Shown here in pieces: positions 14-37,569 of a DNA stretch of 64,000 bases. Position 1 is the first letter of the stretch; each line of letters opens with the position of its first letter. The position numbers and the translations under genes were made by a program. The stretch is from contig DATLBA010000122.1 of assembly GCA_035527275.1 (NCBI GenBank), positions 19,764-83,763 of the forward strand, read 5' to 3'. The DNA comes from Phycisphaerae bacterium (GTDB taxonomy: Bacteria > Planctomycetota > Phycisphaerae > FEN-1346). The notes beneath the pieces were generated by a model. The model was not told the DNA's origin, searched no databases, and worked only from the letters and a program-made list of their open reading frames with translations.

Positions 14-52
14 TACTACTCTGCGAAGCAGCGCTTCGCTGCGAAGCACGAG
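14..52. repeat. 39-bp element built from GCGAAGC / GCTTCGC / GCGAAGC 7-mers; an inverted copy lies at 10305..10343
   Basis: The reverse complement of 14..52 matches 10305..10343 at 38 of 39 positions. Each copy contains three GCGAAGC-type 7-mers in direct-inverted-direct order. Confidence 0.6.
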
Positions 53-6118: not shown

Positions 6119-7182
6119 CCAAGAACCGCACAAAGAAGTCGCGACAGAAGGCTCCGGCCCCCAAGTCCGACGTTGGGGGGTCACAAAGGGGGTCTCCCCC
6201 TTCGGCTTCCTTTGCCAAGGCGCCCCTGGCGCTCCTGGCCCGGCAGGATCTCACGCCGGCCGAAAAACTGGTGGCGATCGTGCTGGAGGATCTCCGGGCG
6301 TTTTCAGGGCGGCGGCCGACGCAGCGGGCCTTGGCCGAGGCGACGGGGCTGGGCGAACGAACCGTCCGGCGGATCTTAGGGCGGCTCAAAAAAGCGGCCA
6401 AAATGGCCGCCTTGAAGGGAGAAAAAAAGCGGCCAAAATGGCCGCCTCAACCGGACAATTTGGCCGGTCCCTTAACCTTTAAGCAGACAATTCAGACAAA
6501 GAAGAGAAAGAAACGGCCTTCCCCTCTCCCCTTGACGAATTCGGGAACGGAAAAAACGGCGCCCGGCCCGCAAGGGCTGTCGGCGAGCGTGGCGATTCTG
6601 GCGGCGAAAATGGCGGAGGGCGCAGGCCGGCAATGGGGCATCGGGCGGGTCAGGGCGGCGGTGGAGGATGACCTGAGGCACGATCGGTATAACCGGGCGG
6701 CTCTGGAAATGTACTTGGCGGCCACCGGGCCCATCGCCGCCCCGCCCTGGAAGTTGGCCGACGACATCCGGGCGGCCCTCGAGGCGAAGGGGGGGGCCGA
6801 CTTTCGCGAGCGGATCCGACAGATCCGGATCGAAGGTCTGACGGACGTCCGCCGGGAAAGCGACGGGCGGCGATGGCGCGTGCGATATCCGGACGAGCGC
6901 GCGGGACTGCTCATCCTTGAGTCGGTGGTCGAACCGCCGCGTCGGCCGACGCTGGCGGATTTGGAGCGGGAACGGGAAGGTTGGAAGTTTGACCGGCGGG
7001 CCGCCGGGTCCCGCACACTGGAGCGGCGGATCGCCGCGCTTCGCGCCGGCCTGCCCGACCCGGACCCGCCAAGAGCGCCGGAGCCGGAAAAGATAGAAAT
7101 CCGCCAGCCCAAGGATCTGGCGGGCTGGACGTTCCGGCCCGATCATCCGACGCTGTTTTCCCTTGAGGGGGGCAGGCCGTGA
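6115..7182 (+). CDS. HTH-domain protein, putative replication initiator (O-like)
   Basis: GTG 6115 overlaps the dam stop (GTGA). An HTH segment (PTQRALAEATGLGERTVRRILGRL) is present. Tandem iteron-like repeats lie inside the gene at 6389..6446. Confidence 0.45.
   Translation: MTKNRTKKSRQKAPAPKSDVGGSQRGSPPSASFAKAPLALLARQDLTPAEKLVAIVLEDLRAFSGRRPTQRALAEATGLGERTVRRILGRLKKAAKMAALKGEKKRPKWPPQPDNLAGPLTFKQTIQTKKRKKRPSPLPLTNSGTEKTAPGPQGLSASVAILAAKMAEGAGRQWGIGRVRAAVEDDLRHDRYNRAALEMYLAATGPIAAPPWKLADDIRAALEAKGGADFRERIRQIRIEGLTDVRRESDGRRWRVRYPDERAGLLILESVVEPPRRPTLADLEREREGWKFDRRAAGSRTLERRIAALRAGLPDPDPPRAPEPEKIEIRQPKDLAGWTFRPDHPTLFSLEGGRP
6389..6446. repeat. two identical 23-bp direct repeats (AAAAAGCGGCCAAAATGGCCGCC), each containing the palindrome GCGGCCA-AAA-TGGCCGC; candidate ori iterons
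   Basis: Copies at 6389..6411 and 6424..6446 are 23/23 identical with a 35-bp period, and lie within the putative initiator gene. Confidence 0.55.
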
Positions 7183-9753: not shown

Positions 9754-10023
9754 ATGGCGAGCAAAGGACTTACGGTGCAGGACATTCTCATCTTGTGGCT
9801 TACCGACCACGGCTACGACGGCCTTGTTTCCGATGGTGCGGACTGTGGTTGCCTTCTCGATGATCTAATCCCGTGCGATGCGCCGTGCGAAACCTGCCGG
9901 CCGGGATACCGCGGCCCGGACCTAACTGGTGAGGGCGATTGGGCCATTTACGGCTCTCGTGAGGCTGTGGGCCAAGCCCTCGCCGCGAGCAAGGCGCTGG
10001 CTGACGGAGAGGCGGACGGATGA
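9754..10023 (+). CDS. hypothetical Cys-rich protein
   Basis: RBS GAAAGGGGAAGG; 89 aa. Confidence 0.45.
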   Translation: MASKGLTVQDILILWLTDHGYDGLVSDGADCGCLLDDLIPCDAPCETCRPGYRGPDLTGEGDWAIYGSREAVGQALAASKALADGEADG

Positions 10024-10295
10024 GCGTATATGTTGACATCCTCAAGCCCTGTGCGCCGAGCCGCGTCTGGCGGTGGGGAGAGTCGTGTCATTTACTCGCC
10101 GATAGCGGGGCGGAGTTGCATGAATTCGCCCGGCGACTCGGCCTAGAAAGGTCGTGGTTTCAGGCGCGATCGGTGCTGCCGCACTACGACCTCACCGCCG
10201 GCAAACGGGAGACGGCCGTCCGCCTGGGGGCAACGGAGATCGGGGATCAAGACGTTGTTGGCCTCATGCGCCGAACGAGGGAGGCAAAAAAATGA
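10020..10295 (+). CDS. DUF4031-family protein
   Basis: MSVYVDILKP...HLLADSGAELHEFARRLGLERSWF...HYDLTAGKRETAVRLGA fits the DUF4031 pattern. Confidence 0.55.
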   Translation: MSVYVDILKPCAPSRVWRWGESCHLLADSGAELHEFARRLGLERSWFQARSVLPHYDLTAGKRETAVRLGATEIGDQDVVGLMRRTREAKK

Positions 10296-11269
10296 CACAA
10301 CCTGCTCGTGCTTCGCAGCGAAGCGCCGCTTCGCAGAGTAGTAAACGAATCGCCAGGGGGCTTTATTGGGACCGGGCTTGGTCGCTGGTGGAGGGTTGCA
10401 CGCCCGTCTCCGCCGGCTGCCGGCACTGCTGGTCGGCCGGCCAGACGCGGACACGCGCAGGCCAGTCGAACTGCAAGATAAAAGCGCGGTACGCGGGCCT
10501 CACGAAAAATACGAGCGAGGGCCCGCGCTTCAATGGAACGATCCGCCTCATGGAAGCGGATCTCGAGAAGCCTCTGCGGGTGCGCAAGCCCACGACTTGG
10601 GCGATCTGGAACGACCTCTTTCACCCGGACGTGCCGGATGAGTTCGTCGACCGCGCGTTCGCCGTCATGGCGCTTTGCCCGCAGCATACGTTCCTGGTGC
10701 TGACGAAGCGGCCGGAGCGGGCCGAGGCGTATGTCCGTGCCGGGCATCAGGCGCTGTGGGGGCGATGGGGCCGTGCGGCGTTGACTGTCGCCTGTGGGAC
10801 AATGGAATGGGTTGGCACGTTCCGCGGGGTTGACCCCCTGCCCTGGCCCCTGCCGAATGTCTGGCTTGGCGTCTCGGTCGAGGACCAGCCCACGGCCGAC
10901 GAGCGCCTGCCCTATCTCCGGGAACCGTCCGCCCAGGGCTGGCACACGTTCGTAAGCGTCGAGCCGATGTTGGGTTCCGTATATTTGGGCGATGCGCTGA
11001 AAGTACCCGAACCCCTCGAGGGGGTTATCTGCGGCTGTGAGTCGGGGCCGAAGCGGCGCATCGACTCGGTAAACTGGTGGCTCTGGGTGAAGGCCCTGAA
11101 AGATGAATGCGTTGCCGGCGGCGTACCGTTCTTCCTCAAGCAAGGCGAGGGATGGGGCGGCTGTGTTGTCAAGATGCCACTTCTCGACGGCCGGCGGTGG
11201 GACGAGATGCCGGAGGAGATGAAGGGGAAAGCCCGCGGATTGTCCCGGCGCGCCGGGATGGGTGGATAG
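10292..11269 (+). CDS. phage Gp37/Gp68-family protein (DUF5131)
   Basis: LYWDRAWSLVEGCTPVSAGCRHCW matches the characteristic N-terminus of this family (C-x5-C-x2-C). RBS GAGGGAGG. The 5' end contains the inverted-repeat copy at 10305..10343. Confidence 0.6.
   Translation: MTQPARASQRSAASQSSKRIARGLYWDRAWSLVEGCTPVSAGCRHCWSAGQTRTRAGQSNCKIKARYAGLTKNTSEGPRFNGTIRLMEADLEKPLRVRKPTTWAIWNDLFHPDVPDEFVDRAFAVMALCPQHTFLVLTKRPERAEAYVRAGHQALWGRWGRAALTVACGTMEWVGTFRGVDPLPWPLPNVWLGVSVEDQPTADERLPYLREPSAQGWHTFVSVEPMLGSVYLGDALKVPEPLEGVICGCESGPKRRIDSVNWWLWVKALKDECVAGGVPFFLKQGEGWGGCVVKMPLLDGRRWDEMPEEMKGKARGLSRRAGMGG
10305..10343. repeat. inverted copy of the 39-bp element at 14..52
   Basis: 38/39 identity to the reverse complement of 14..52. 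Confidence 0.6.
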
Positions 11270-19103: not shown

Positions 19104-20030
19104 ATGGCTCTGCCAACGCTGTTGGACATCGCCAGGGCGAGCGGGTCGGACGCCGTGGTCGGTCTCATCGACGAGGCCGCCAAGACCCATCCGGAACTCT
19201 TACTCGGCCCGGCGAGGACGATCAAGGGTCTGAACTACAAGACCCTCGTCCGGACGGCCGTGCCGACCGGAACGGCGTTCCGCGACGCGAACGAGGGCGT
19301 CGCGCCGACGAAAGGGACGTACATCAACCGCCTGGTCGAGGCGTTCATCCTCAACCCGAGGTGGGAATGCGACAAGGCCGTCGCCGACGCCTACGAGGAC
19401 GGCGCCGAGGCCTACATCGCGCTCGAGGGCCAGGCGATCCTCGAGGCCGCGATGCAAGACCTCTGCGCCCAGTTCTACTACGGGCGCGGGACGGGCGGCA
19501 ACGCGAAGGGCTACCCCGGCCTCCTGGCGGCCTACGACGCGGCGAACATGGTTGTGGACGCGGGCGGGACAACGGCCGCCACCGGCTCGAGCGTGTGGGG
19601 CGTGCGTTGGGGCCCGAAGAACGTCCAGTGGGTGTGGGGCCTGAACGGCCAACTCGCCCTCGCGGACGTGCGGGAGGAATCGATCCTGGACGCGGGCGGG
19701 ACGAATAAGTTCACCGCCTACATCCAGGAGATCCTCGCGCGGCCGGGCCTCCAGGTGGCGAGCCTCCTGTCGATCGCCCGCATCAAGAAGTTGACGGCCG
19801 ACAGCGGCAAGACGCTGACCGACGACATGATCGCCGATCTCCTGTCGAAGTTCCCGGCCGGCCTCAGGCCCGACGTGCTCCTGATGAACCGGCGGAGCCT
19901 GCGGCAACTCCAGGACAGCCGCACGGCGACGAACGCGACGGGCGCCCCGGCGCCGTTCCCGGCCGAGGCGTTCGGCGTGCCGATCGCCCCGACGGATGCG
20001 ATCCTCTCGACCGAAGGCTTGACCCTGTAA
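19104..20030 (+). CDS. major capsid protein
   Basis: RBS GGAAAGGA. A 308-aa protein following the protease/scaffold gene, with strong hairpins downstream. Confidence 0.55.
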   Translation: MALPTLLDIARASGSDAVVGLIDEAAKTHPELLLGPARTIKGLNYKTLVRTAVPTGTAFRDANEGVAPTKGTYINRLVEAFILNPRWECDKAVADAYEDGAEAYIALEGQAILEAAMQDLCAQFYYGRGTGGNAKGYPGLLAAYDAANMVVDAGGTTAATGSSVWGVRWGPKNVQWVWGLNGQLALADVREESILDAGGTNKFTAYIQEILARPGLQVASLLSIARIKKLTADSGKTLTDDMIADLLSKFPAGLRPDVLLMNRRSLRQLQDSRTATNATGAPAPFPAEAFGVPIAPTDAILSTEGLTL

Positions 20031-20055
20031 GCGTTCAGGTCTGGGGCCGTGCGGC

Positions 20056-20133
20056 CAGCGGGGCCGCACGGCCAGACCTGACGAACGACAACCCCCCGAT
20101 TGCAATCGGGGGGAAGTCAAAAAAGCACGGCCT
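20056..20133 (+). terminator. two consecutive GC-rich stem-loops after the capsid gene (terminator-like / RNA-stability elements)
   Basis: A hairpin with a roughly 19-bp stem at 20056..20100 and a perfect 22-nt palindrome CCCCCCGATTGCAATCGGGGGG at 20112..20133. No clear U-tract follows on the + strand. Confidence 0.4.
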
Positions 20134-22449: not shown

Positions 22450-24740
22450 GCCGGCTCGATAGGGAAACTCTAACGGGTGTTGACATTACGCCCGCTGATG
22501 GACTCCTGGTCCTCACGAAGGCGCTGCCGACCAGCCTGGCGGAGTGGGCACTGAAAGGCATCGTCCGCGTATCGGCTCTCGCCGCAAGCAAGACACGGAC
22601 GCTCACGCTGACCGTCAAGACGGACGGCGAGCACGTGTTCTCAACCGACTGGGTCTTCGAGAGCGACGCGACCGACGCCGGACGGGTGAAGCGAATGGCC
22701 TTTCGCGTGCCCGAGGACATTCGGGGGACGGTGACGCTGCATCTTCACTCCACCGAAGCGACCGATACGACGGTCGATGTGGACGCTCGCCTGAATACAG
22801 ATGTGGATGACGTGCCGAACACTTGGTTTGTGGATGCGACCTACGGCCACGACACGGAGCACGACGGCCGGTCGTGGCAAACTGCCTTTCTGACAATCGA
22901 CGCTGCAATAGCGGTAGCAGCCTCAGGCGACACGATTTGTACGGGTCCTGGGATTTTCGCTCTGGGGGCCGCTGTGATCGAATTACCTGACGGCGTCAAC
23001 TTACAAGGTAAAGGCATCGACGCGACGCTTATTACAAGCACGGCGGTGTTGAGCACACTTGGATGTATCGTAAAGCCGGGCACGGGATCTCGGATAGCCG
23101 ATCTGACAATTCAGGGGATTGCTGGTGCTGGGGTATATCAGGCCGCGTTGGGATACCGAAAGGCGAGTGCCGGCGCGCCGACCCAGGCCCGCTTCCTCCA
23201 TGCTTGGGCCGACCGGGTGCGTTTGATTGCCGACGCCGACGGCGTTTACATTCGAGAAGAGCCCGACCCGGGTACCCGATGTGATCTTGTCATGCGCGAC
23301 TGTCTTATCGAAACTAAGTATGATGGTGTGACGATAATTTCGCGCAACGCAAGTATTGTTCTTTACGACACGCGCATTGTTGTGATAGGGCCCTCTTCCT
23401 GCGGTGGCCAATACGCTCACGGCCTTGCCGGAATAGGAGGCTCGGACGCCTTTATTTCCATGGTGCGGGGTTCACTTGAGGTATCCGGAGCAACAGTGTC
23501 AAACGTAGGTGCTCAAGAGGCCAGAGGTCGCATTATCTTGAGCGATGTTCACGTGGATACCGCTGGAGCTGCCCCGATGGACTTGGTGCAAGCAGATAAT
23601 GGCAGTGTCTTCGTTTTCGGCAGTGTGTTTGACCCAGCTAAGACCTCTGGCACGATTATCCACGTTCCGCCCGGCGCATCCATCCTGGCCGACACGGCCG
23701 CCCTTGAGGCGCGCCTCACTGCGGAACGGGCGGCCCGCCTGGATGCGGACGTATCGAGCCGCGCCACGCCCGCTGACGTGACAGGTGCCCACGGTATGAC
23801 AGACGGCCTCATTGGAGGCCTGGGGTCGCCGGAGCAGGATGGCGCGGTCGCGACCGCCCATGCGACGACTGACGGCAAGGTGGACGCGGCCAAAGCCTCG
23901 GCGGACGCGGCGTCGCGCCCCTCGGACGTCACAACGGCCCACGCGACGACAGACGGCAAGGTGGACGCGGCGAAGGCGAGCGCCGACGCGGCGAAGGCCA
24001 GCGCGGATGAGGCGTCGCGCCCCTCGGACGTGACGACGGCCCACGCGACGACTGACGGCAAGGTGGACGCGGCGAAAGCCAGCGCGGATGCGGCGAAGGC
24101 GAGCGCCGACGAAGCCACCCGGCCCGACGACATTCCGACGCCGGAGGCGAACGCGGCCGAGACCGCAGAAGTCCTGGCGGCGGCGCACGGCGAAGAATCG
24201 TGGGAAAGCCTTGCGGAGCGAGATTGGACGGCGGGCGAGCGCGGGCAGATCCGCGACGCTCTGGGCGTGGCTGGCGACAAGACGACGGCGGAGGACGGAC
24301 AATTGCAGAATATCAAGACCAAGACGGACCTCATCACGGCCGGGAATGTTCGCGTGCGGACGCCGGTTGCGGCCGACGGAACGATTACGCTCATGCGCGG
24401 CGATTCCTACTTGGAAGTGGACGATACAAAACTGAAACTCGATGTTCCGAACTACGCCGGCCCGGACCTGACGGCCGAGGGAACGGTTCTTACGTTCAGC
24501 GTCGGCCCGAGACGCGAGGGACAACCGGCAATCTTCACGGTCGAGGCGTCGGCGGAAATGGACGGGACGACCCTGGTGCTCTCCGCCGATGTGGCGAGCG
24601 GGGACACGGCCGAACTGGATGCGCCCGGAGAATATCTTTATGACTTTCAGGCCGTCTTTGCCTCCGGCGGGATCTTCACTCCCGCCGCCGGCAAACTGTT
24701 GGCGCTTGCCGACGTGATGGCCGAACCGGAAGAGGAGTAG
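22440..24740 (+). CDS. right-handed beta-helix (pectate-lyase-fold) tailspike / depolymerase-like protein with internal tandem repeats
   Basis: NTWFVDATYGHDTEHDGRSWQTAFLTIDAAIAVAASGDTI is the canonical start of pectin-lyase-like beta-helices; 766 aa. Confidence 0.55.
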   Translation: MRMSRLDRETLTGVDITPADGLLVLTKALPTSLAEWALKGIVRVSALAASKTRTLTLTVKTDGEHVFSTDWVFESDATDAGRVKRMAFRVPEDIRGTVTLHLHSTEATDTTVDVDARLNTDVDDVPNTWFVDATYGHDTEHDGRSWQTAFLTIDAAIAVAASGDTICTGPGIFALGAAVIELPDGVNLQGKGIDATLITSTAVLSTLGCIVKPGTGSRIADLTIQGIAGAGVYQAALGYRKASAGAPTQARFLHAWADRVRLIADADGVYIREEPDPGTRCDLVMRDCLIETKYDGVTIISRNASIVLYDTRIVVIGPSSCGGQYAHGLAGIGGSDAFISMVRGSLEVSGATVSNVGAQEARGRIILSDVHVDTAGAAPMDLVQADNGSVFVFGSVFDPAKTSGTIIHVPPGASILADTAALEARLTAERAARLDADVSSRATPADVTGAHGMTDGLIGGLGSPEQDGAVATAHATTDGKVDAAKASADAASRPSDVTTAHATTDGKVDAAKASADAAKASADEASRPSDVTTAHATTDGKVDAAKASADAAKASADEATRPDDIPTPEANAAETAEVLAAAHGEESWESLAERDWTAGERGQIRDALGVAGDKTTAEDGQLQNIKTKTDLITAGNVRVRTPVAADGTITLMRGDSYLEVDDTKLKLDVPNYAGPDLTAEGTVLTFSVGPRREGQPAIFTVEASAEMDGTTLVLSADVASGDTAELDAPGEYLYDFQAVFASGGIFTPAAGKLLALADVMAEPEEE
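23863..24135 (+). repeat. three imperfect tandem repeats of about 81-102 nt encoding TAHATTDGKVDAAKASADAA(KASADEA)SRPSDVT
   Basis: Direct reading of the nucleotide and protein sequence. Confidence 0.6.
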
Positions 24741-26585: not shown

Positions 26586-27187
26586 CGACTCACGTGAAAT
26601 TGAGGACTATCACGCAACTCGATGTGGAGCGCGAGGCGGCCTTGAATCCGTACTGGAAAGGGCGGTGGGAAAATTATCTGGCGGTCGCGTGCCGGATTTT
26701 CCGCGAGATCCCGGGTGTCACGAGGGTGCTGGAGATCGGACCCGGAAGCCTCTCGCTCGTGCGCGGTTGCGACATCATGGACATCTGGAACTGGGGCCGG
26801 CGGCCGCTGACTTTCGGGCACGATGCCGGGGCGGTGCCCTGGCCGCTCCCCGACGATGCTTACGACGTGGTCGTGGCCTTGCAAGTGCTCGAGCATCTTG
26901 GCGGCGACAACGCCCGATTCTATCGCCGGGTCATGGCGGCGTTGCCGGACAAAGAGCAATGCGTCCGGCGGCAAAGGGCGGCGTTCGCCGAGGCGCTCAG
27001 GGTCGCGCCGAGGCTGCTCCTCAGCGTGCCGCTGGACTGGAAGACGACGGGGATGCACGCGGGGATCACGCCGGATGTGGTGAAATCTTGGGCGCCGCGC
27101 GGCGCCAAAGTGACAGCGTCTGTCAAGGTCGGGCGGGACCAGAACCGCCGGCGACTTGTGGAACTCTGGCAAAGGGAGACAGTCTGA
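26582..27187 (+). CDS. class I SAM-dependent methyltransferase
   Basis: VLEIGPGSLSL...VVVALQVLEHL. ATGA overlap. Confidence 0.5.
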   Translation: MTTHVKLRTITQLDVEREAALNPYWKGRWENYLAVACRIFREIPGVTRVLEIGPGSLSLVRGCDIMDIWNWGRRPLTFGHDAGAVPWPLPDDAYDVVVALQVLEHLGGDNARFYRRVMAALPDKEQCVRRQRAAFAEALRVAPRLLLSVPLDWKTTGMHAGITPDVVKSWAPRGAKVTASVKVGRDQNRRRLVELWQRETV

Positions 27188-27630
27188 TGGAAAAACTGGG
27201 AATGGATGCAAAACTCTACCGGAACAAGGGGACCTACGCGGTTCCCGACTGGGAGGAGATCACCAACGTGCGGGACGTGACGCTGAACCTGGAAGAGGGT
27301 GAGGCGGATCTCACGACCCGGGCGAATGCGGGCTGGCGGGCGACGCTCGGGACCCTGAAGGATGCGAGCGTCGACTTCGAGATGGTCTGGGACACCGAGG
27401 ATGATGGGTTCACCGCCCTCCAGGAGGCGTTCTTTGATAAGACGACCCTGGAGATAGCCGCCATGTCCGGCGCCATCGACGATGCCGAGAGCCAGGGACT
27501 CCGGGCGACCATGCGGGTGGCGACGTTCACGCGGTCTGAGCCGCTCGAGGAAGGCATCACCGTCGCCGTGACGCTGAAGCCGGCCCCGGCCGACAACGCG
27601 CCGGAATGGATCAGCGGCGCCTACGCCTGA
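27187..27630 (+). CDS. major tail (tube) protein
   Basis: 147-aa protein immediately upstream of the chaperone and tape-measure genes, with a beta-rich composition. Confidence 0.55.
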   Translation: MEKLGMDAKLYRNKGTYAVPDWEEITNVRDVTLNLEEGEADLTTRANAGWRATLGTLKDASVDFEMVWDTEDDGFTALQEAFFDKTTLEIAAMSGAIDDAESQGLRATMRVATFTRSEPLEEGITVAVTLKPAPADNAPEWISGAYA

Positions 27631-28258: not shown

Positions 28259-28504
28259 ATGGCGGAAGGATGCTCGCGGGAACGGTGGAACCATACGGCG
28301 TCGCTGATGGCGCACCTGGCGAACATCAGCCCGTTCCGAAAGAAGGGGCGCACGCTCCAGCCGAAAGATTTTCATCCGTTCCAGACGGGACGGCGCAAAG
28401 GCGGTCTGCGGCTGACGAAGGAGAACATCGGCATCCTGAAACAGGTTTTTGTGCGGTCAAAGGCCGCTTCCAACAGGCGGGGGAAAAAAGGGGACGGAAA
28501 ATGA
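28259..28504 (+). CDS. ORF in the -1 frame relative to the chaperone gene: either a gpT-like frameshift extension or a small separate gene
   Basis: Frame-2 ORF open from 27677 through 28504. ATG at 28259. The stop overlaps the next start (ATGA). Confidence 0.3.
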   Translation: MAEGCSRERWNHTASLMAHLANISPFRKKGRTLQPKDFHPFQTGRRKGGLRLTKENIGILKQVFVRSKAASNRRGKKGDGK

Positions 28505-29442: not shown

Positions 29443-29558
29443 GGCGATCTCCGCCGAAGGGGTCCAGTCCCACGGCCAAGGGGGGGATCGCCGCGTGTGG
29501 GCGGTCCTGGCGCACCAGGGGGGGGACTAGCCCCTCGCACCGCGAGGGGACATTGGTT

Positions 29559-29590
29559 ATCCCCCGGAGCGCAGTCCGGGGGAGAATAGA
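29559..29590 (+). promoter_or_regulatory. 32-nt hairpin element ATCCCCCGGAGCGCAGTCCGGGGGAGAATAGA immediately 5' of the RBS; copy 1 of 2
   Basis: Stem CCCCCGGA/TCCGGGGG with loop GCGCAG. Identical at 31/32 positions to 32471..32502. Confidence 0.5.
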
Positions 29591-29601
29591 AGGAGGATGA
29601 C

Positions 29602-30132
29602 GTGCCTGCAGGCGGGTTGAACATGACCTTTTCGATGTTCTTCGATCGCCGTCCCGTTCTGCACGCGGCGGATAAGGCCAAGCGGCAGGTGATGTCGAAG
29701 GCCGGGGCGTTCATCCGGACAGCCGCGAAGTCCTCCTTGAAGTCCGCGCCGCAGAAAACGCTCGCGGAAATGTCGGCCGAGGAGCGCGAGATCTATGCCA
29801 TTCGCATCCGCAAGGCCGAACGCCGGGGCCGGCGAAAACCCCGCCGGCCCGAGCGGAGAAGCAGGCCCGGCCGGCCGCCGCTTCTGCACATGCGGCCGTC
29901 GCCTCTGAAGCGGCTCATCTACTTCGGTTACGACCGGGCGGCGGACTCGGTGGTCGTCGGGCCCCTCAGGTTCGGGCGACGCCCGGGCGCGGACGTCCTC
30001 GAGCGCGGCGGCACGGCCCGGATCCGGGGCCGCCGTCGGCGCGTCGCCGCCCGGCCGTTCATGGGACCGGCTCTGGCGCAGGAACTGCCGAAGTTCCCGA
30101 GCCTGTGGCGAGACTCGGTAAGGAGGGCGTGA
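29602..30132 (+). CDS. hypothetical tail/virion morphogenesis protein
   Basis: GTG after AGAAGGAGGA. 176 aa with an Arg-rich C-terminus. Confidence 0.4.
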   Translation: MPAGGLNMTFSMFFDRRPVLHAADKAKRQVMSKAGAFIRTAAKSSLKSAPQKTLAEMSAEEREIYAIRIRKAERRGRRKPRRPERRSRPGRPPLLHMRPSPLKRLIYFGYDRAADSVVVGPLRFGRRPGADVLERGGTARIRGRRRRVAARPFMGPALAQELPKFPSLWRDSVRRA

Positions 30133-30133
30133 C

Positions 30134-32440
30134 ATGGCGACTCCCGGCGGCATTCGTGCCGGCAAGGCTTACGTCGAACTGGGCGTCCGGGACCGTCTGT
30201 CGCGGGGTCTGAGGGCGGCCAGTGCAAAACTCAAGGCGTTCGGGGCTCAGGTCATGGCCATCGGGGCGTCGGTCCGGACCGCGGGCCTTCGGCTCTTCGC
30301 CGCCGCCGCAGGTATGGCGGTGCCGTTTGTCGTTGCCGCGAAGGTCTTCGCCTCCTTCGAAGAGCAGATGGCCAACGTCTCGACGATGCTCGGCGACCAG
30401 GCCGAAAAATACATGCCCGCCTACACGAAAGCCGTCCGCCGCATGAGCGTCGAATTCGGCGAAGGGACCGAGACCATCGCCAAGGGCCTCTACGATCTCC
30501 TGTCGGCCACGGTTGCGCCGGAAAAGGCGCTGGGCGTCCTTCGCGTCGCCCTGAAGGCGGCCGCCGGCGGCATGACCGATACGGCCACATCCGTCAAGGC
30601 AGTGGTCCGCGTCCTGAAGGCTTACAACGTGGATGCGGAGGCGGCGGCGGACATAAGCGACCTCCTGTTCAAGATCGTCCAGCGAGGCGTGGTGACCTAT
30701 CCGGAACTGGCCGAGCACATCGGCTCGGTCGCGCCGGCCGCCCGCGCTGCCGGACTGTCGCTCGAAGAGTTGGCGGCGGCCATCGCGACGGTCATTACCG
30801 TTGAGGAGCCCGCCCGGGCAATGACCGCCCTCAGGCAGGCGATATTCGAGGCCGCCGAGGCGGGGCTCGACCTGATGTCGTTCATCCGAAAGTTCGAGGG
30901 CGCCGACCTCGAAGCAATCATTGCCGCGGGCATTCCCAAACGGGCCGCTCTGGGCGTGGTCATTCTCGCCGGCAACATCGCACTGCTCGATGAAAACCTT
31001 GCCGCGATGGCGGCGAGGACCGGCGCGGCCGAGGAGGCCTATCAGAGGATGGCCTTTACGCTGGGCCGCTTCGGCCGCCAGGCGAAGCAGGCGGGCCTCT
31101 TGATCCTGTCGACGATCGGCGAGGCCCTGGCGGAGCCGCTGAAACGGGCGGCGAAGGCCATCACGGAGTGGGGAACAAGAGTCGCCGACTGGGTTTCCAA
31201 GAATAAGGAGCTGATTCGCACACTGGCAAAAGGCGTCCTCATCGTCGGGGCCCTCGGGGCCGGACTGGTCATCCTGGGGACGATCATTTCCGGCGTCGGC
31301 TTCGGGATTATGGGGTTTGGGATAATACTCGGCGCGGTTGTCACAGCCCTGGGGGCACTTCTCTCGCCCCTCGGGCTCGTTGTGGCGGCCCTCGGCCTCG
31401 TCTCGATTGCCGTCGTCGGTCTCGGCGCCTACCTCCTGTGGGCGAGCGGCGCGGGCGGAAAGGCCCTGGCCTGGCTCAGCGAGAAGTTTGGGGAACTGAA
31501 GGACTTCGCTCTGAAGTCTTTTCAGGGCATCAAGGACGCCCTGGCCGCAGGCGACTTCCGGCTGGCGGCCAGAGTTCTCTGGGCGAGTCTCAAGGTGGCC
31601 TGGCAGAAAGGGACCCACTGGCTGGAGACGACCTGGCTCGATTGGAAGAAGTCATTTCTCGACACGGCGACGGACGCCTTCTACGGCTTCCTGGCGCTTT
31701 GGACCCAGGTCAGAGCAAAAATCGCCACGGTTGCAGCCGAGATGAAGGCGCTTTTCTCGACCATCGGCGCCGTCGGCGCGGGCCTTGTCAAACTCAAACT
31801 TCACGAGACCGTGGGCCGAGCGGCCGCTCGGCGCGAGGCCGCCGAACTGAAGGCACGCAGGGGGCGCGGCGAAATCACACCGGAAGAGTATGCGGCCGGC
31901 AAAACAGAAATTTTTGAGCGTTGGAAAGCCAGGCGCGCAGAGATCGTCGGCGAGACGGATAAAAAACTCGTTGACGCCGAGGAAGACCTGCAAAAAACCC
32001 TTTTGGGAATCGAGGACGAAAAAGAGAAGGCCCTCATCGACGCCGCCGAAAAGGCCGCCGCCGCCCGCCGCAAACACGCAGCTGCACACGGCAAGGCCCT
32101 GGCCGCAGCGGAAAAGGAACTCGCCGACGCCGAAGCCGCGTGGGAGACGGCGGTCAGAGATGCAGCCCAGGCACGCGAGCTGGCGGAACGGCCGCTGTGG
32201 GGGGAGGAAGAACCGCCGGGGGCGCCGCCCGTGCCCAACATTGCGGATCTGCTGAAAAACATCGGCGAGGGTGTGGGCGAGGCTGTGGAGCGGACCGTCC
32301 GGGTCCGGGGGACCTTCAGCCCGTTTGCGGCCGAGGCGCTCGGCCTGGGCGACGCCCTGACCAACGCGGCGAAGGCAACCGCCAAGAACACGAAGCGCCT
32401 CGTCGACATGGCGGAGGATGGCGGACTGGTCTTCGAATAG
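30134..32440 (+). CDS. tail tape measure protein
   Basis: 768 aa, alpha-helical and Ala-rich, with multiple TM segments in the middle. N-terminal resemblance to the phage tape-measure domain family. Confidence 0.75.
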   Translation: MATPGGIRAGKAYVELGVRDRLSRGLRAASAKLKAFGAQVMAIGASVRTAGLRLFAAAAGMAVPFVVAAKVFASFEEQMANVSTMLGDQAEKYMPAYTKAVRRMSVEFGEGTETIAKGLYDLLSATVAPEKALGVLRVALKAAAGGMTDTATSVKAVVRVLKAYNVDAEAAADISDLLFKIVQRGVVTYPELAEHIGSVAPAARAAGLSLEELAAAIATVITVEEPARAMTALRQAIFEAAEAGLDLMSFIRKFEGADLEAIIAAGIPKRAALGVVILAGNIALLDENLAAMAARTGAAEEAYQRMAFTLGRFGRQAKQAGLLILSTIGEALAEPLKRAAKAITEWGTRVADWVSKNKELIRTLAKGVLIVGALGAGLVILGTIISGVGFGIMGFGIILGAVVTALGALLSPLGLVVAALGLVSIAVVGLGAYLLWASGAGGKALAWLSEKFGELKDFALKSFQGIKDALAAGDFRLAARVLWASLKVAWQKGTHWLETTWLDWKKSFLDTATDAFYGFLALWTQVRAKIATVAAEMKALFSTIGAVGAGLVKLKLHETVGRAAARREAAELKARRGRGEITPEEYAAGKTEIFERWKARRAEIVGETDKKLVDAEEDLQKTLLGIEDEKEKALIDAAEKAAAARRKHAAAHGKALAAAEKELADAEAAWETAVRDAAQARELAERPLWGEEEPPGAPPVPNIADLLKNIGEGVGEAVERTVRVRGTFSPFAAEALGLGDALTNAAKATAKNTKRLVDMAEDGGLVFE

Positions 32441-32445
32441 AAAAG

Positions 32446-32467
32446 CCCATGGATTGCAATCCGTGGG
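32446..32467 (+). terminator. stem-loop CCCATGGATTGCAATCCGTGGG after the tape-measure gene, sharing the GATTGCAATC palindromic core with 20112..20133
   Basis: Roughly 10-bp stem with one mismatch. Confidence 0.35.
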
Positions 32468-32470
32468 GTA

Positions 32471-32502
32471 ATCCCCCGGAGCGCAGTCCGGGGGAGGATA
32501 GA
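32471..32502 (+). promoter_or_regulatory. copy 2 of the 32-nt hairpin element, immediately 5' of the start of gene 32505
   Basis: ATCCCCCGGAGCGCAGTCCGGGGGAGGATAGA; 31/32 identity to 29559..29590. Confidence 0.5.
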
Positions 32503-32504
32503 CC

Positions 32505-33380
32505 ATGCCGATCACGGTAAGCGAAAAACCCGACAGCCGCACCCGCGGGGAAGATCGGGCGGAGATGCGCTTTATCATCCGCGGCACGGCCGACGGCGCC
32601 GCCGCGCGGACCGCGCTCCTCGCCAGCGGGGACGTGCCCGCCGCCTACGACGGTCTGGTGCGCGAGCGCGCCCGCGTCGAGCCTGTCCACGTGGACGCCG
32701 GCGACGAGCCGGCCTGCATCTGGGAGGGAATTGTCGAGTACGCCCAGCCGTCCGGGTCCGCGCCGATCCAGACGGAGATCGGCGACGTGGTCCTCTCCGT
32801 CGATACGACCGGCGGTACGCAGCACATCACACAGAGCCTCGAGACGCTGGGCTATTATTCTCCACCCGACAAGGATCCAGCGAACAACAAGGGCGCCATC
32901 GGCGTCACGGACGACTCCGTCGAAGGCGTGGACATTCCCCTGCCGGTCATGCGGCTGACGGCCACGAAGGTGTGGGACCCGGCCGATGAAAGTCTGCCGA
33001 CCATCGCGGCCCTTTACGCCCTGATCGACACGCCGATGAACGTCGCCGAGTTCACTGTCACCGACACGCAGACCGGCCGCACCATGACTTTCGCCGCGGG
33101 CGAGTGCCGATTCCTGGGGCACCGCGAGGGCGGACGAAGAGCCGACGGGGGGTTGGAAATCGTCTATGAGTTCGACGCCCAACCGAACCGGACAGATATG
33201 GACATCGCCGATATGACCGACATCCTCGGGCACAAAATCTCCAAGAAGGGATGGGACTATCTCTGGTTTCGCTACGCGGATGCCGAAGACGACGCGGCGA
33301 AAGCGCTTGTTCAGATCCCCATCGCCGCTTATGTCGAAAAGGTGCACAAAGATGGAGATTTCTCCGTCCTGGGCCTGTAG
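32505..33380 (+). CDS. hypothetical tail protein (distal tail protein position)
   Basis: Follows the tape-measure gene; 291 aa. Confidence 0.45.
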   Translation: MPITVSEKPDSRTRGEDRAEMRFIIRGTADGAAARTALLASGDVPAAYDGLVRERARVEPVHVDAGDEPACIWEGIVEYAQPSGSAPIQTEIGDVVLSVDTTGGTQHITQSLETLGYYSPPDKDPANNKGAIGVTDDSVEGVDIPLPVMRLTATKVWDPADESLPTIAALYALIDTPMNVAEFTVTDTQTGRTMTFAAGECRFLGHREGGRRADGGLEIVYEFDAQPNRTDMDIADMTDILGHKISKKGWDYLWFRYADAEDDAAKALVQIPIAAYVEKVHKDGDFSVLGL

Positions 33381-33395
33381 GCGGGAACAAATGTC

Positions 33396-35180
33396 ATGGC
33401 CTTGAAGCGGGTCCGGCCCGGTGAACGGCTGCGAATCCCGGCCGATGCCTATAACGCCTTCGTGGAGGCGGCCCAGGCCCACCGCGGCCGCCAGCAGGGA
33501 ACAGGCGCGGAGCGCCCCGCTCGCCGGCTCGAGTCCCGAAACGTCGTCCCCGTCAAGAACACTTCCGGCGCCGATCAGGATCGCTTTGCGATCCTCGGCA
33601 TAGATGTCCCGATCTTCACGCCCACGGACAACCTTCAGGAGTTCCAGAACCGGCCGGCCCTGAAGGGCATCGTCCCGACCACGGCCGACCATGCGGGCCG
33701 GTTCGTCGTCCTCCTCGAGCCCGCCAAGGCGGACGTCATCGTTCCCGGCCTGATGATGGGCGTGACGCCGGTCCAGGTGAACATCACGGATGAGAACCAC
33801 CAGTTCGCCGACGTGGCCGACGGCGAAACGGGGCACCTGGAAAGTGGGGTGGCAGGCGCAGCACAGATTCTCTGGCGCGAAGGACTGGTCGAAGAGGAGG
33901 AATGGCCGCAGGTGAAGTGGGCCGTGGTGCGCGTGTCCAATCCCGCGGCCGCGGCGCAACTGGCGATAATCCACGGCCTCAAGGTCACGGGCGTATGGAC
34001 AGCATGGGGCGAGGCATGGACCGATTTCGACACCCACGGATACATCACCTTTGTCAGTGGTAAGTTTGCTTTCCTTGATAAGTCATGGGTGGACGAAGAA
34101 TCGGACGACCTGTTCATCAAGGTCACCGGCCCGCGCGGCAAGAACACCCCCATCGGCTACCGCGGTATCGCCGTCAACGACTTCATCGGCTGGGCGGCTG
34201 GCGATTACTTTGAGGATATTCCGGACTCAGGCGGCGAGGTCTATGACGGCGAGGTGGTGGCGTTCGTCGGCCCCGAGGGGGCGCTGCTGAACTGGGGAAT
34301 CACCGCAGGCAAAGGCTTGGTGCTCGACAACCCCGTGCCCTACGACCGCAAGATCCACGTGGAACTTGAAGATACTACACCCGGTCTCAAGTTCGATGAG
34401 GAGACCGACAACGGTCAACTTATGGTGGATCCGAACACGGACAAAGGCATCACCGTCGGCGCCGCCGGCGTGGAAGCGAAGATTAACGATGGGGTGGCGG
34501 GCCTTCGGTTCGGTGGTGAAGGAAACATCGAAGTTAAACCAGATGCGACGCGCGGCATTGACGTAGCCGCCGATGGCGTCCGAGCGAAACTTGCTGCTGA
34601 CGGGGGCCTTCAGTTCGACGGTGCAGGTGACCTGGCGGTCAAGCCCAAACCAGACGCAGGTATTGTCGTTGATGCGGATGGCGTAGCGGTCAAGCCGTAC
34701 TTTGGGATCGTCCTCGATGCCAACGGAGTGGCTGTCAAGCCGAAGCCGGACTCGGGTATCGTAGTGGATGTGGATGGTGTGGCCGTCAAACCCGACGCGG
34801 CGCGGGCCGCGGGCGTCGATGCCAGCGGCCTCCACGTCCGTGTGCCAGCCGCCGGCAGCCGCAAGGGCGTGATCTTCACGCCGGATGGGGAACTCGGCGC
34901 CCATGTGAACATGGCGGTCGGCGGCATCATGGTTGATGACGACGGCCTGGCGATTCTTGTCAACCAGGACAAAGGCATATCCGTTGACGGCAATGGGGTA
35001 TTTCTCCAACTGGACAGTGTAAATCTGGACTTTGCTGCTGGAGACCTTACCCACATCGTCGGCCCGCACGTGTATGGACACGAAACCAACCTGACGAGTC
35101 TTCATGGCATCAGCCTAGATGCGAACGGGCATGTTCGGAAGGTTTACGCTTATGAGGCATGGATAGGACCGGCAGCATGA
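33396..35180 (+). CDS. tail fiber protein with internal periodic repeats
   Basis: 594 aa with periodic GIVVDxDGVAVKPKPD-type repeats (about 34440..34800). The C-terminal region shares a 64-bp identical stretch with the convergent gene at 35752..36342. Confidence 0.55.
   Translation: MALKRVRPGERLRIPADAYNAFVEAAQAHRGRQQGTGAERPARRLESRNVVPVKNTSGADQDRFAILGIDVPIFTPTDNLQEFQNRPALKGIVPTTADHAGRFVVLLEPAKADVIVPGLMMGVTPVQVNITDENHQFADVADGETGHLESGVAGAAQILWREGLVEEEEWPQVKWAVVRVSNPAAAAQLAIIHGLKVTGVWTAWGEAWTDFDTHGYITFVSGKFAFLDKSWVDEESDDLFIKVTGPRGKNTPIGYRGIAVNDFIGWAAGDYFEDIPDSGGEVYDGEVVAFVGPEGALLNWGITAGKGLVLDNPVPYDRKIHVELEDTTPGLKFDEETDNGQLMVDPNTDKGITVGAAGVEAKINDGVAGLRFGGEGNIEVKPDATRGIDVAADGVRAKLAADGGLQFDGAGDLAVKPKPDAGIVVDADGVAVKPYFGIVLDANGVAVKPKPDSGIVVDVDGVAVKPDAARAAGVDASGLHVRVPAAGSRKGVIFTPDGELGAHVNMAVGGIMVDDDGLAILVNQDKGISVDGNGVFLQLDSVNLDFAAGDLTHIVGPHVYGHETNLTSLHGISLDANGHVRKVYAYEAWIGPAA
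34836..34899 (+). repeat. left copy of a 64-bp inverted repeat, inside the tail-fiber CDS
   Basis: 63/64 identical to the reverse complement of 36081..36144. It encodes VRVPAAGSRKGVIFTPDGELG in both genes. Confidence 0.7.
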
Positions 35181-35755
35181 AAATCGACTGGATTACCGTC
35201 GTGAAGTGTCGCTACGCACGGGACTGGGGCAACCCGGTTCTGGACAAGTGGCTCAACGCCCTGGCGGCGATGGGGGCGGTGGTCCGTGCGAGCAGCGTGG
35301 CTCCGCGCGTGGACTTGATGCGCAACCGCGAGGTTGGACGGTGGCTCGCGGAGGATGCAACCCGCTATCTGCTGATGGTGGATTCGGATATGGTTCCGCT
35401 GCCTGAGACCAACGCCCTGTTGGTTGAGGCGGGCGACGCGCTTTGGTGTCCCTATGTGGACCAGGCGGGCAAGGTGATAGACGCGCAGAAGAACGGTGTC
35501 GGGACGGGATGTATGAGGATTTCACGCGGCTTGGCGGAAGCGATACCGGAACCGCGATTCGAGTATACTCTGGATACATCTGGTCGGAAGGTCGAAAAGA
35601 GCGAGGCCTTCACTTTCACGCAGAAAGTGGCGGCGGCGGGCTTCGCATTCCGCGCCGTCGGGCGAGCGGGACACCTGATGCGGCTGGTAGCCTTGCCGCC
35701 GGGGCCGGGGCACACGGCGGTCGAATGGAAATTCGAGTGGGAGTTTTGGGGCTAG
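35177..35755 (+). CDS. hypothetical protein between the inverted repeats (possible DxD-type glycosyltransferase-like or fiber-assembly protein)
   Basis: ATGA overlap with the fiber stop. Contains LLMVDSDM. The functional call is weak. Confidence 0.35.
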   Translation: MKIDWITVVKCRYARDWGNPVLDKWLNALAAMGAVVRASSVAPRVDLMRNREVGRWLAEDATRYLLMVDSDMVPLPETNALLVEAGDALWCPYVDQAGKVIDAQKNGVGTGCMRISRGLAEAIPEPRFEYTLDTSGRKVEKSEAFTFTQKVAAAGFAFRAVGRAGHLMRLVALPPGPGHTAVEWKFEWEFWG

Positions 35756-36342
35756 GGCGACGAGAACGTCGCTACTTCAACCCATTTAACCGCACCATCG
35801 CCGTGGTCGAACATAAGCACGTAATCTTTAGTTGCGGGATTCGCCGGTGCCGCAACCAATTTCCAAGCCTTGTCTATGGTCTGGTCCCAGACGAGCATCT
35901 GCCCGTCCGCCGTGCCGTCCGCCAGCCCCACACCATCAGCATCTACTTTGACCGCGGCCGCCGCGTCCACCTTGACGCGCACTCCGTTGGCATCAACATC
36001 TATGCCCTTATCCTGGTTGGCGAGGATCGCCAGACCATCATCGTCGATCATGATGCCGCTGATCAGCATATTCGTGTGAACGCCGAGTTCCCCGTCCGGC
36101 GTGAAGATCACGCCCTTGCGGCTGCCGGCGGCTGGCACACGGACATAGAGGCCGTCAGCATCAACCCCCATGGCTCGTGTTGTGTCCGGCTTGGCTTCGA
36201 ATTTGCCGCCCGCCTCGTTCACCAACCGAAATTTCCGCGCCTCCACGACCTCTGCCGCTGGCGGCGTTCCGCCGCACGCCACCGCCATGACGGCCAACGG
36301 AAGCACCAACAACACAGTGATGAATCGAGTTGATCTCTTCAT
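35752..36342 (-). CDS. lipoprotein whose C-terminal domain is homologous to the tail-fiber C-terminus
   Basis: Lipobox signal peptide MKRSTRFITVLLVLPLAVMAVAC. RBS GGGAGA. The C-terminal region (YVRVPAAGSRKGVIFTPDGELGVHTNM...GIMIDDDGLAILANQDKGIDVD) parallels the fiber C-terminus (HVRVPAAGSRKGVIFTPDGELGAHVNM...GIMVDDDGLAILVNQDKGISVD). Confidence 0.55.
   Translation of the reverse strand: MKRSTRFITVLLVLPLAVMAVACGGTPPAAEVVEARKFRLVNEAGGKFEAKPDTTRAMGVDADGLYVRVPAAGSRKGVIFTPDGELGVHTNMLISGIMIDDDGLAILANQDKGIDVDANGVRVKVDAAAAVKVDADGVGLADGTADGQMLVWDQTIDKAWKLVAAPANPATKDYVLMFDHGDGAVKWVEVATFSSP
36081..36144 (-). repeat. right copy of the 64-bp inverted repeat, inside the lipoprotein CDS
   Basis: See 34836..34899. 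Confidence 0.7.
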
Positions 36343-37241: not shown

Positions 37242-37569
37242 GATGGCGCGACGGAAAACCGTGAAAACTCGGCCGCAAAACCTTCCGGTGCGCATCGCGC
37301 CAAACTTCATTTCGAGTTATCTTGATGCTCCCATTATACATATTATGTTGCGCTGGGGAGCGCTTGCGGAGTCCACGCGGTCCTTGCGGCCGTTGTTGTG
37401 GTCGGGCCATGGAGGGGGCCGAAAAAGTGCTAATGGTTCGGGAACACGACGCGCAGCCTCCACGACGTTGAAGAGGATGGTTTCGCACGGTGGCGCGCGA
37501 AGTCCGGTGGCCGTTCGGAAGACGCGGCAGGCGCGGGGTTCGAAGAATGCCCCTAACAGGCAGAAGAGG

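Follow-up and report, generated by a model that had tools for sequence, protein, structure and literature searches.

Two hairpin repeats in the tail module of a Phycisphaerae prophage belong to a patchily distributed family of small GC-rich palindromes

To our knowledge, Proteobacteria are a familiar source of small dispersed palindromes, whereas those of Planctomycetota are essentially uncharacterised; reports from structural operons of phages are rare. The malE-malF repetitive extragenic palindrome (REP) and the Rhodobacter puf operon are examples of intercistronic hairpins that stabilise polycistronic mRNA, and such hairpins govern the stability or processing of individual mRNA segments. 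REP units and bacterial interspersed mosaic elements (BIMEs) affect mRNA stability and are located mostly downstream of genes (Delihas 2011, PMC3184786; Di Nocera et al. 2013, PMC3733652); a REP is defined by an unpaired GTAG or CGTC tag at one end (PMC3733652). SPRITEs are streptococci-specific repeats of about 105 nt, which resemble Rho-independent terminators and occur near gene 3' ends (PMC3184786). The start-associated sequence (SAS) of Cluster K mycobacteriophages is asymmetric, 13 nt long and present in more than 10 copies; it precedes non-structural genes only, lies 3-7 nt before their starts, is found at the same gene families across subclusters, and is virtually absent from hosts (PMC3203893). 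The extended form (ESAS) combines SAS with an inverted repeat, and both are without an assigned function (Pope et al. 2011, PMC3203893). Here, we examined two copies of a GC-rich hairpin in a stretch of 64,000 nt from the Phycisphaerae contig DATLBA010000122.1 (hereafter, the window), each located directly upstream of a tail gene of an integrated phage. Both copies are insertions and belong to a hairpin family with a patchy, multi-copy distribution. Our preferred reading, with a probability of about 0.5, is that they are REP/MITE-like (MITEs being miniature transposable elements with inverted repeats) dispersed small GC-rich palindromes of Planctomycetota chromosomes and several unrelated phages, which form co-transcribed intercistronic hairpins acting as decay or processing barriers.

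A search of the window bore out the repeat recorded in an earlier sequence-only reading, namely 32 nt at 29559-29590 and 32471-32502 of the plus strand, with 31/32 positions identical. The identity between the copies extends to 36 nt (29555-29590 and 32467-32502; 34/36). No third copy of the 32-nt sequence was found in the window with up to three mismatches allowed. None of 100 shuffled sequences matched the repeat, which rules out its chance occurrence. Judged by their letters, the two copies are apparently a recent 36-nt duplicate of each other. Each is preceded by a partner hairpin:

29555-29590, plus strand: copy 1, 36-nt unit GGTTAT-CCCCCGGA-GCGCAG-TCCGGGGG-AGAATAGA, with the stem at 29560-29568/29575-29583 and the loop at 29569-74.
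32467-32502, plus strand: copy 2, 36-nt unit GGTAAT-CCCCCGGA-GCGCAG-TCCGGGGG-AGGATAGA, with the stem at 32472-32480/32487-32495.
29531-29549, plus strand: partner hairpin of copy 1, CCCCTCGC-ACC-GCGAGGGG, a CCC...GGG stem with a 3-nt loop, -14.8 kcal/mol.
32446-32467, strand unassigned: partner hairpin of copy 2, a diverged family member CCCATGGA-TTGCAA-TCCGTGGG located 5 nt upstream of copy 2 and forming a dimer with it.

The predicted fold of either copy is a stem of 9 bp closed by the loop GCGCAG, at -18.9 kcal/mol. The loop had been named correctly before; the stem is 9 bp rather than the 8 bp given earlier because a U-A pair closes it. The 5' flanks of the copies are AU-rich in RNA (GGUUAU and AGAAUAGA). 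The spacer that holds copy 1 also contains homopolymer runs of seven and eight G (29481-29487 and 29518-29525); when 150 nt are folded to minimum free energy, the G8 run is paired to the 5' arm of copy 1, a competing structure seen at this copy only. Both copies had been reported to end 8 to 12 nt before a start codon. This holds for copy 1 (11 nt to GTG 29602) and fails for copy 2 (2 nt to ATG 32505); the stem-to-start distances are 18 and 9 nt, respectively. Rfam searches returned only a tRNA above the gathering threshold, and permissive searches with the elements gave chance-level matches, so that a known RNA family was rejected at either threshold.

The two copies share their frame, a CCC-stem, a one-base bulge with a GCA triloop, and GGG, with further hairpins. 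Four members reside in this phage: the copies themselves, the partner of copy 2, and one hairpin behind the major capsid gene:

19104-20030, plus strand: major capsid gene (PF20911).
20036-20079: extended hairpin of -36 kcal/mol, directly after the capsid stop codon and upstream of the 20092 member.
20092-20113, strand unassigned: family member CCCCCCGA-TTGCAA-TCGGGGGG, within the spacer of 140 nt that follows the major capsid gene.

Four family sites in the window compare with 0.025 expected in shuffles, for a pattern that was defined after the sequences had been seen. The member at 32446-32467 scores better on the minus strand (tail CTTTTC), although a G-U pair of the plus strand is a C-A mismatch there. 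Family searches were made with two covariance models, R1 and R2. These revealed no further members in the window, none in about 35 kb of host flank (including 8.3 kb beyond the window), and, apart from one marginal match (L071), none in the related tail loci, which total about 640 kb. The family is thus not a general habit of this phage group. This marginal relative (L071, 1360-1406, minus strand; CCCGCGGAGC...GCTCCGCGGG+CGTG) is a hairpin whose loop is expanded; it occurs in antisense orientation among the tail genes of a prophage, on a contig of 887 kb, and is flanked by tail genes. The partner hairpin of copy 1 (29531-29549) was not detected by the family covariance model.

Outside this phage, the family was found in Planctomycetota chromosomes and in unrelated viral sequences. 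A scan of 185,579 species genomes, one genome per species, for the exact 22-nt core identified it on five contigs of Planctomycetota metagenome-assembled genomes (MAGs). The neighbouring genes encode M50 peptidase; DPP-IV, sulfatase and proline racemase; and TruA and glycosyltransferase. The core is followed by CGTT in all six occurrences and by CGTTTT in four of them. Two contigs (L001 and L002) carry it paired with an inverted diverged unit, CCCGCCGA-(A/C)CGCAG-TCGGCGGG+CGTT, which displays compensatory stem changes; the resulting dimer has the form AACG-unit(rc)-spacer-unit-CGTT. The usual terminus of units outside this phage is C(G/T)T(T); that of the window copies is AGRATAGA. The viral contig L107 (69% GC) has at least five sense-strand members in its head module, where they follow a cement-protein gene and flank a head-tail attachment gene on either side. 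Four members surround a distant lambda-type portal gene in L148. Single members were detected in L166, L134, L169 and L127. In phages, the units are placed 1-61 nt past the upstream stop codon and are co-oriented with transcription. One hairpin of L148 (6027-6062, minus strand) is intragenic, in frame within an open reading frame of 735 aa with a G+C fraction of 0.93 at third codon positions. IMG/VR contains neither the exact 22-nt core nor the exact 18-nt core; in an IMG/VR sample matched by a loose pattern, 5 of 120 sequences were fully paired versus about 0.9 expected. Among 50,697 isolated phage genomes, only chance 17-mers were found. Literature searches yielded no description of this hairpin family.

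The family is characterized by paired stems of varied sequence below a conserved apex. In an alignment of 21 sequences, 98.9% of cells pair and compensatory changes occur at 6/9 pairs, figures that are inflated because the methods used to find members reward pairing. The apical pair (loop positions 2 and 6) lies outside the search models and is C-G in 16 sequences, U-A in three and U-G in one. This pairing defines the motif as a CCC...GGG stem carrying a one-base bulge and a GCA triloop. R1 and R2 favour B-like loops, and a loop-blind listing of every CCC(N5)-N6-(N5')GGG hairpin was therefore not left to them: loops of the type nnGCAr made up 4/5 in the window, 4/5 in L148 and 3/3 in L107, and loops were heterogeneous elsewhere. 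Discovery biased towards pairing has less influence on the apex result and on the loop-blind listing. In L148, the loop of all four members is GCGCAG, with a different complementary stem in each, and the 5' flanks of two of them (GGTGAT and GGTGAA) are of the same type as those in the window (GGTTAT and GGTAAT). C-GCA-G is a GNA-type triloop, as known from very stable DNA mini-hairpins. With such a conserved apex, it is conceivable that the hairpin is recognised by a factor, either as RNA or as single-stranded DNA.

The spacers that hold the copies are specific to this lineage. The following features are relevant here:

29443-29601, plus strand: lineage-specific spacer of 159 nt between g83 and g176, with the G7/G8 runs, the partner hairpin and copy 1; 1-3 nt in the closest relatives.
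29602-30132, plus strand: g176, labelled 'gpG-like' by one source.
30134-32440, plus strand: tape measure gene (TMP; PF10145).
32437-32441, plus strand: direct repeat ATAGA, left copy; the stop codon of TMP, TAG (32438-40), is part of it.
32441-32504, plus strand: lineage-specific spacer of 64 nt between TMP and g291, holding the dimer.
32498-32502, plus strand: right copy of ATAGA, at the end of a 61-nt insert.
32505-33380, plus strand: g291, after TMP in 80/80 relatives.

These assignments agree with the earlier placement of both flanking genes in the tail module; g176 and g291 themselves gave no match in Pfam, PHROGs, NCBIfam or PDB. Ten contigs with an identical g291 (near-identical genomes, L006-L015) represent the same phage with zero variation and are therefore uninformative for conservation. 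Diverged loci were fetched instead: 80 via g291 (40-54% identity) and four via g176 (56-67%). Absence of the motif from close relatives had been named as refuting a shared control of the two genes; as far as the data allow, both hairpins are absent at both junctions in all of these relatives. Among 54 resolvable loci, the TMP-g291 spacer has a median length of 12.5 nt and is at most 24 nt long in 38; 11 spacers measure 32-106 nt and contain unrelated small inserts, and five have gene-sized inserts. In the closest relatives sharing the gene order of the window, the junctions X-g176, g176-TMP and TMP-g291 are all 1-10 nt long. No hidden small open reading frame was found in the 159-nt spacer.

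Removal of 32442-32502 yields TTCGAATAGACCATG, which aligns without gaps to the uninterrupted junctions of L021 (TTCGAGTAGACCATG) and L026. With its right copy at the end of the insert, ATAGA resembles a target-site duplication. The match to an empty site, together with the bracketing by ATAGA, therefore identifies the copy-2 site as an insertion into a tight junction. Before this event, TMP and g291 were probably translationally coupled; an insert in so tight a junction had to supply a Shine-Dalgarno sequence of its own. Such a duplication signature is evident at the copy-2 site, not at the copy-1 or capsid sites. The gene g176 has been relocated within the tail module: it directly precedes the tail tube gene in about 18 relatives, the commonest order, and TMP in the window and about 12 relatives (the loci compared include L024, L026, L028 and L043). 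The repeat was considered as a recombination signal at module boundaries and rejected; g176 did move, yet relatives with the moved order lack the repeat, so that no link between repeat and relocation is shown. Ends of the IS200/IS605 type with g176-TMP as cargo were likewise dismissed, as the same gene pair is hairpin-free in relatives and no transposase was found. Relatives have no counterpart of g201 or g228, and g83 has one in L026 only.

A second family of small palindromes, CTCGTGCTTCGCAGCGAAGCGCYGCTTCGCAGAGTAGTA, was detected at 10305-10343 (plus strand) and 14-52 (minus strand) of the window. The copy at 10305 is in frame at the 5' end of a called DUF5131 gene. Members of this family fill the TMP-g291 junction in L020 (about 865-905) and, in diverged form, in L029. 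They are also present in five viral contigs (L104-L108), being nested in the loops of two family-1 hairpins in L107. Phages of this group thus appear to carry several kinds of small palindromic inserts, for which the TMP-g291 junction would be a recurrent landing place. GAGTAGA was rejected as a target duplication in L020, since this tail belongs to the family-2 element itself. A repeat of another kind, a CRISPR-like array with a 36-37-nt repeat (GTGTCCATCGATCATGACCGCGTCGGCCGACGCGGC) and a period of 72-73, occurs in L060 at 10001-10330, about 2.6 kb downstream of a related tail module.

The two initiation regions differ in their relation to the hairpins. The Shine-Dalgarno sequence of g291, GGAGGA (32493-98), lies within copy 2 and 6 nt before ATG 32505; three of its bases are in the stem, with an unpaired probability of 0-0.18. 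The internal equivalent in copy 1 is GGAGA (29581-85), a poor Shine-Dalgarno sequence, and g176 has one outside the hairpin:

29590-29597, plus strand: Shine-Dalgarno sequence of g176, AAGGAGGA, outside the hairpin; start codon GTG 29602.

Judging from homologue N-termini, the true start of g176 could be ATG 29623. Opening of positions -14 to +5 costs 11.5 kcal/mol for g291 and 5.4 kcal/mol for g176, compared to 1.8-11.1 kcal/mol for other operon genes tested. Structure prediction at the initiation regions, another test named earlier, therefore does not reveal a common occlusion: g176 is cheap to open and within the range of other operon genes, and shared occlusion of the ribosome binding site (RBS) was rejected. 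The closeness of the copies to an RBS is what any insertion into a 3-15-nt junction gives. In a compact phage genome, a structured repeat beside an RBS need not regulate the adjacent gene.

All genes called between 9.1 and 35.7 kb are on the plus strand, and the hairpin units are therefore co-transcribed. The sequence-only reading had excluded a canonical intrinsic terminator, and rightly so. No T-tract follows either copy (3' sequences AGAATAGA and AGGATAGA), no U run is present, essential tail genes of the operon lie downstream, and a terminator scan did not list the window copies on the plus strand. A tandem 35-nt duplication at 6388-6457, between convergent genes, forms two canonical terminators with a hairpin and T6 (minus strand, GCGGCCATTTTGGCCGCTTTTTT); given such terminators elsewhere in the phage, the missing T-tract at the copies is meaningful. 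RNase III requires a duplex of about 20 bp. The 9-bp stems are too short for a site of this enzyme. By analogy with REP/BIME hairpins and classical intercistronic stabilisers, RNA processing or stabilisation, one of the candidates of the sequence-only reading, would still be a reasonable function.

The copies are best filed in the class of REP/MITE-like dispersed palindromes, and the following course of events would account for the observations. Units were presumably inserted into three junctions of a long rightward late operon; at the copy-2 site, an inverted dimer would have entered a formerly 3-nt TMP-g291 junction and left a 5-nt direct repeat. Transcribed within the late polycistronic mRNA, the units would fold into stem-loops of about -19 kcal/mol just past cistron ends. 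Transcription would read through them, because the phage copies are without a T-rich tail. The stem-loops may block 3'-to-5' decay or serve as processing punctuation, as REP hairpins do. Copy 2 would secondarily provide the Shine-Dalgarno sequence of g291, and the difference between the 3' flanks (GGAGG versus GGAGA) would give a good Shine-Dalgarno sequence only where one is needed.

Several points weigh against this reading. The RNA role of the units is one that we infer, and stabilising the low-abundance TMP cistron has no obvious benefit. Copy numbers are low (4-5 members in a phage, 1-3 exact copies on a MAG contig), a target duplication can be recognised at one site only, and neither a GTAG or CGTC tag nor a Y1 transposase was seen in the phage. 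Most members were found by patterns or models that reward pairing. Finally, the stems all differ in L148 and L107 and the apex is conserved, and varied stems with a fixed apex look more like old, selected elements than recent selfish copies. It is accordingly conceivable, at a clearly lower probability, that the hairpin is a selected cis-element whose copies are functional, not selfish, and whose apex is read sequence-specifically by a trans-acting factor. This could be an RNA-binding protein of host or phage with a role in termination, antitermination or processing, or an enzyme acting on single-stranded DNA, such as an HUH/Y1 transposase or a priming protein. Hexaloops forming pseudo-triloops, for example that of the iron-responsive element, are protein sites. 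The invariant or covarying apex on fully different stems within L148 and L107, the occurrence of the same core in different planctomycete classes, and the 5' flank type GGTnAw common to L148 and the window speak for such a factor. However, no candidate binding protein is common to the three phages in the sequence examined, one member lies in frame inside a gene, and hairpin stability alone could conserve the apex. The element is also absent from nearly all relatives of the phage, so that no conserved phage function needs it. With the same reserve, one may envisage an undescribed, structurally constrained class of cis-elements of Planctomycetota and their phages, served by a dedicated trans-factor (an RNA termination or processing protein or a single-stranded DNA HUH enzyme); phages would deploy or acquire these elements for punctuation of late structural operons, and the copies would in addition bring a portable Shine-Dalgarno sequence.

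The proposal of the sequence-only reading, a shared post-transcriptional switch at the initiation regions of g176 and g291 (occlusion or activation of the RBS, or a site for a late regulator), is improbable. The stems are located 9-18 nt from the called starts, and the partly paired Shine-Dalgarno sequence in copy 2 costs 11.5 kcal/mol to open. Yet the one of copy 1 is outside the hairpin and costs 5.4 kcal/mol, and values of 10-11 kcal/mol were also obtained for element-free genes. The proposal fails as well on the absence of the hairpin from both junctions in every available relative and on the dispersed nature of the family, members of which also occur away from any RBS; in junctions so short, closeness to a start codon is unavoidable. 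Equally doubtful is a set of weak factor-independent or factor-dependent attenuators located after the capsid gene, before g176-TMP and after TMP, which would adjust the ratios of structural proteins. The chromosomal copies with CGTTTT tails downstream of co-oriented genes and the site after the capsid gene, a classic place of attenuation, fit this idea. It is contradicted by the tails in L107 and L148, which have 1-3 T only, and by the window copies, which lack a T-tract and were passed over by the terminator scan in a phage that has canonical T6 terminators elsewhere and essential tail genes downstream. A solitary CRISPR-repeat mimic, acting as an RNA anti-CRISPR decoy, is very improbable. 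The length of 36 nt is typical of repeats, and an internal hairpin, an 8-nt 3' tail and intergenic positions in phages would suit a mimic, but no array was present at the exact-core matches in the species genomes or in the window. In the chromosomes, copies occur between housekeeping genes, singly or at a distance of 1.5 kb from each other. The tail does not resemble the known handles of repeats, and the flanks of the hairpin relatives vary. Integron attC sites were discarded, too: the AACG...CGTT ends of the dimers are suggestive of R''/R' boxes, but do not conform to RYYYAAC / GTTRRRY; the units fall short of the length required, and housekeeping genes surround them.

The phage occupies positions 1-37358 of the window and is a temperate phage of about 37.4 kb integrated in the chromosome of a member of the Phycisphaerae (Planctomycetota); host DNA extends over 37359-64000 and includes FHA, PilM/O and T2SSE genes. 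Contigs of 37.4-37.8 kb from other samples join position 37358 to position 1 via about 100 nt. These circular-type contigs of the same phage indicate that it is probably active. A 23-nt core (ATACATATTATGTTGCGCTGGGG) represents attR (37336-37358), attL (129 nt left of the window start) and attP, and marks the prophage ends; it is located at about 8300-8330 in L101 and at 14825-14854 in L007. A tRNA at 1078-1149 is inside the phage. The head genes encode terminase, portal and the major capsid protein, and the tail module includes:

27187-27630, plus strand: tail tube gene.

This is followed by g178, g81, g228, g83, the 159-nt spacer with copy 1, g176, TMP, the 64-nt spacer with copy 2, g291 and g594. 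At the end of g81 (28481-28504), GGGAAAAAAGGGG is a candidate programmed frameshift site of a tail assembly chaperone pair, with the start of g228 in the -1 frame and an ATGA overlap. In-frame tandem repeats of 102 nt (2.0-2.3 copies, 81-86% matches) are located at 23883-24140 within a structural gene of 764 aa. An inverted repeat of 169 nt (34811-34979, plus strand, and 36001-36169, inverted; 83% identity) differs mostly at every third base. Its halves are paralogous coding segments, one at the 3' end of the fibre-like g594 and the other inside a gene of the minus strand (35752-36342), and may represent tail-fibre tips that are alternative or invertible.

The case offers a defined motif that covariation supports, a covariance model that works, three phages with multiple copies, and an insertion with the matching empty site. 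It is usable for studying the movement of such elements between hosts and phages, the uncoupling of translationally coupled genes with donation of an RBS, and the apex as a possible factor-binding site.

Compared to REP/BIME elements, the units are similarly short GC-rich palindromes of 20-40 nt (here, a 22-nt hairpin in a 26-36-nt unit, -18.9 kcal/mol). They are likewise extragenic, mostly just downstream of genes and occasionally intragenic, patchy between genomes and co-transcribed, and they also form inverted dimers (L001, L002 and 32446-32494 in the window). Unlike REPs, they have no GTAG or CGTC tag; the tail typical of the family, C(G/T)T, is missing from the window copies. REPs reach tens to hundreds of copies per genome; the counts here are 4-5 for a phage and, for exact copies, 1-3 for a MAG contig. 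Genes called in the phage and in its flanks gave no match to PF01797 (the Y1 transposase RAYT, REP-associated tyrosine transposase). The conservation of the apex with stems that vary within a genome, and the occurrence in phage genomes, are further differences from REPs. Terminator-like units near gene 3' ends are shared with SPRITEs, and the chromosomal copies here end in CGTTTT; the unit is, however, only 22-36 nt long, and the phage copies are without a T-tract.

With SAS/ESAS, the copies have in common that they are phage-borne repeats directly upstream of starts and contain a Shine-Dalgarno core. In contrast to these, there are two copies (four family members), located in structural operons, unconserved in relatives and shared with chromosomes of the host phylum. 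Intercistronic stabilisers and the RNase III sites of T7 are also stable stem-loops between cistrons, and the T7 sites are a repeated family just upstream of RBSs; the stems described here differ in having 9 bp. The difference from MITEs lies in a size at the lower limit, in duplication at one site only, and in that no cognate transposase is known. The likeness to MITEs is seen in nested insertions, with family 2 inside family-1 loops in L107, and is most apparent at the copy-2 site, where an inverted dimer of 54-61 nt is accompanied by the direct repeat ATAGA (5 nt) and the relatives L021 and L026 show an empty site.

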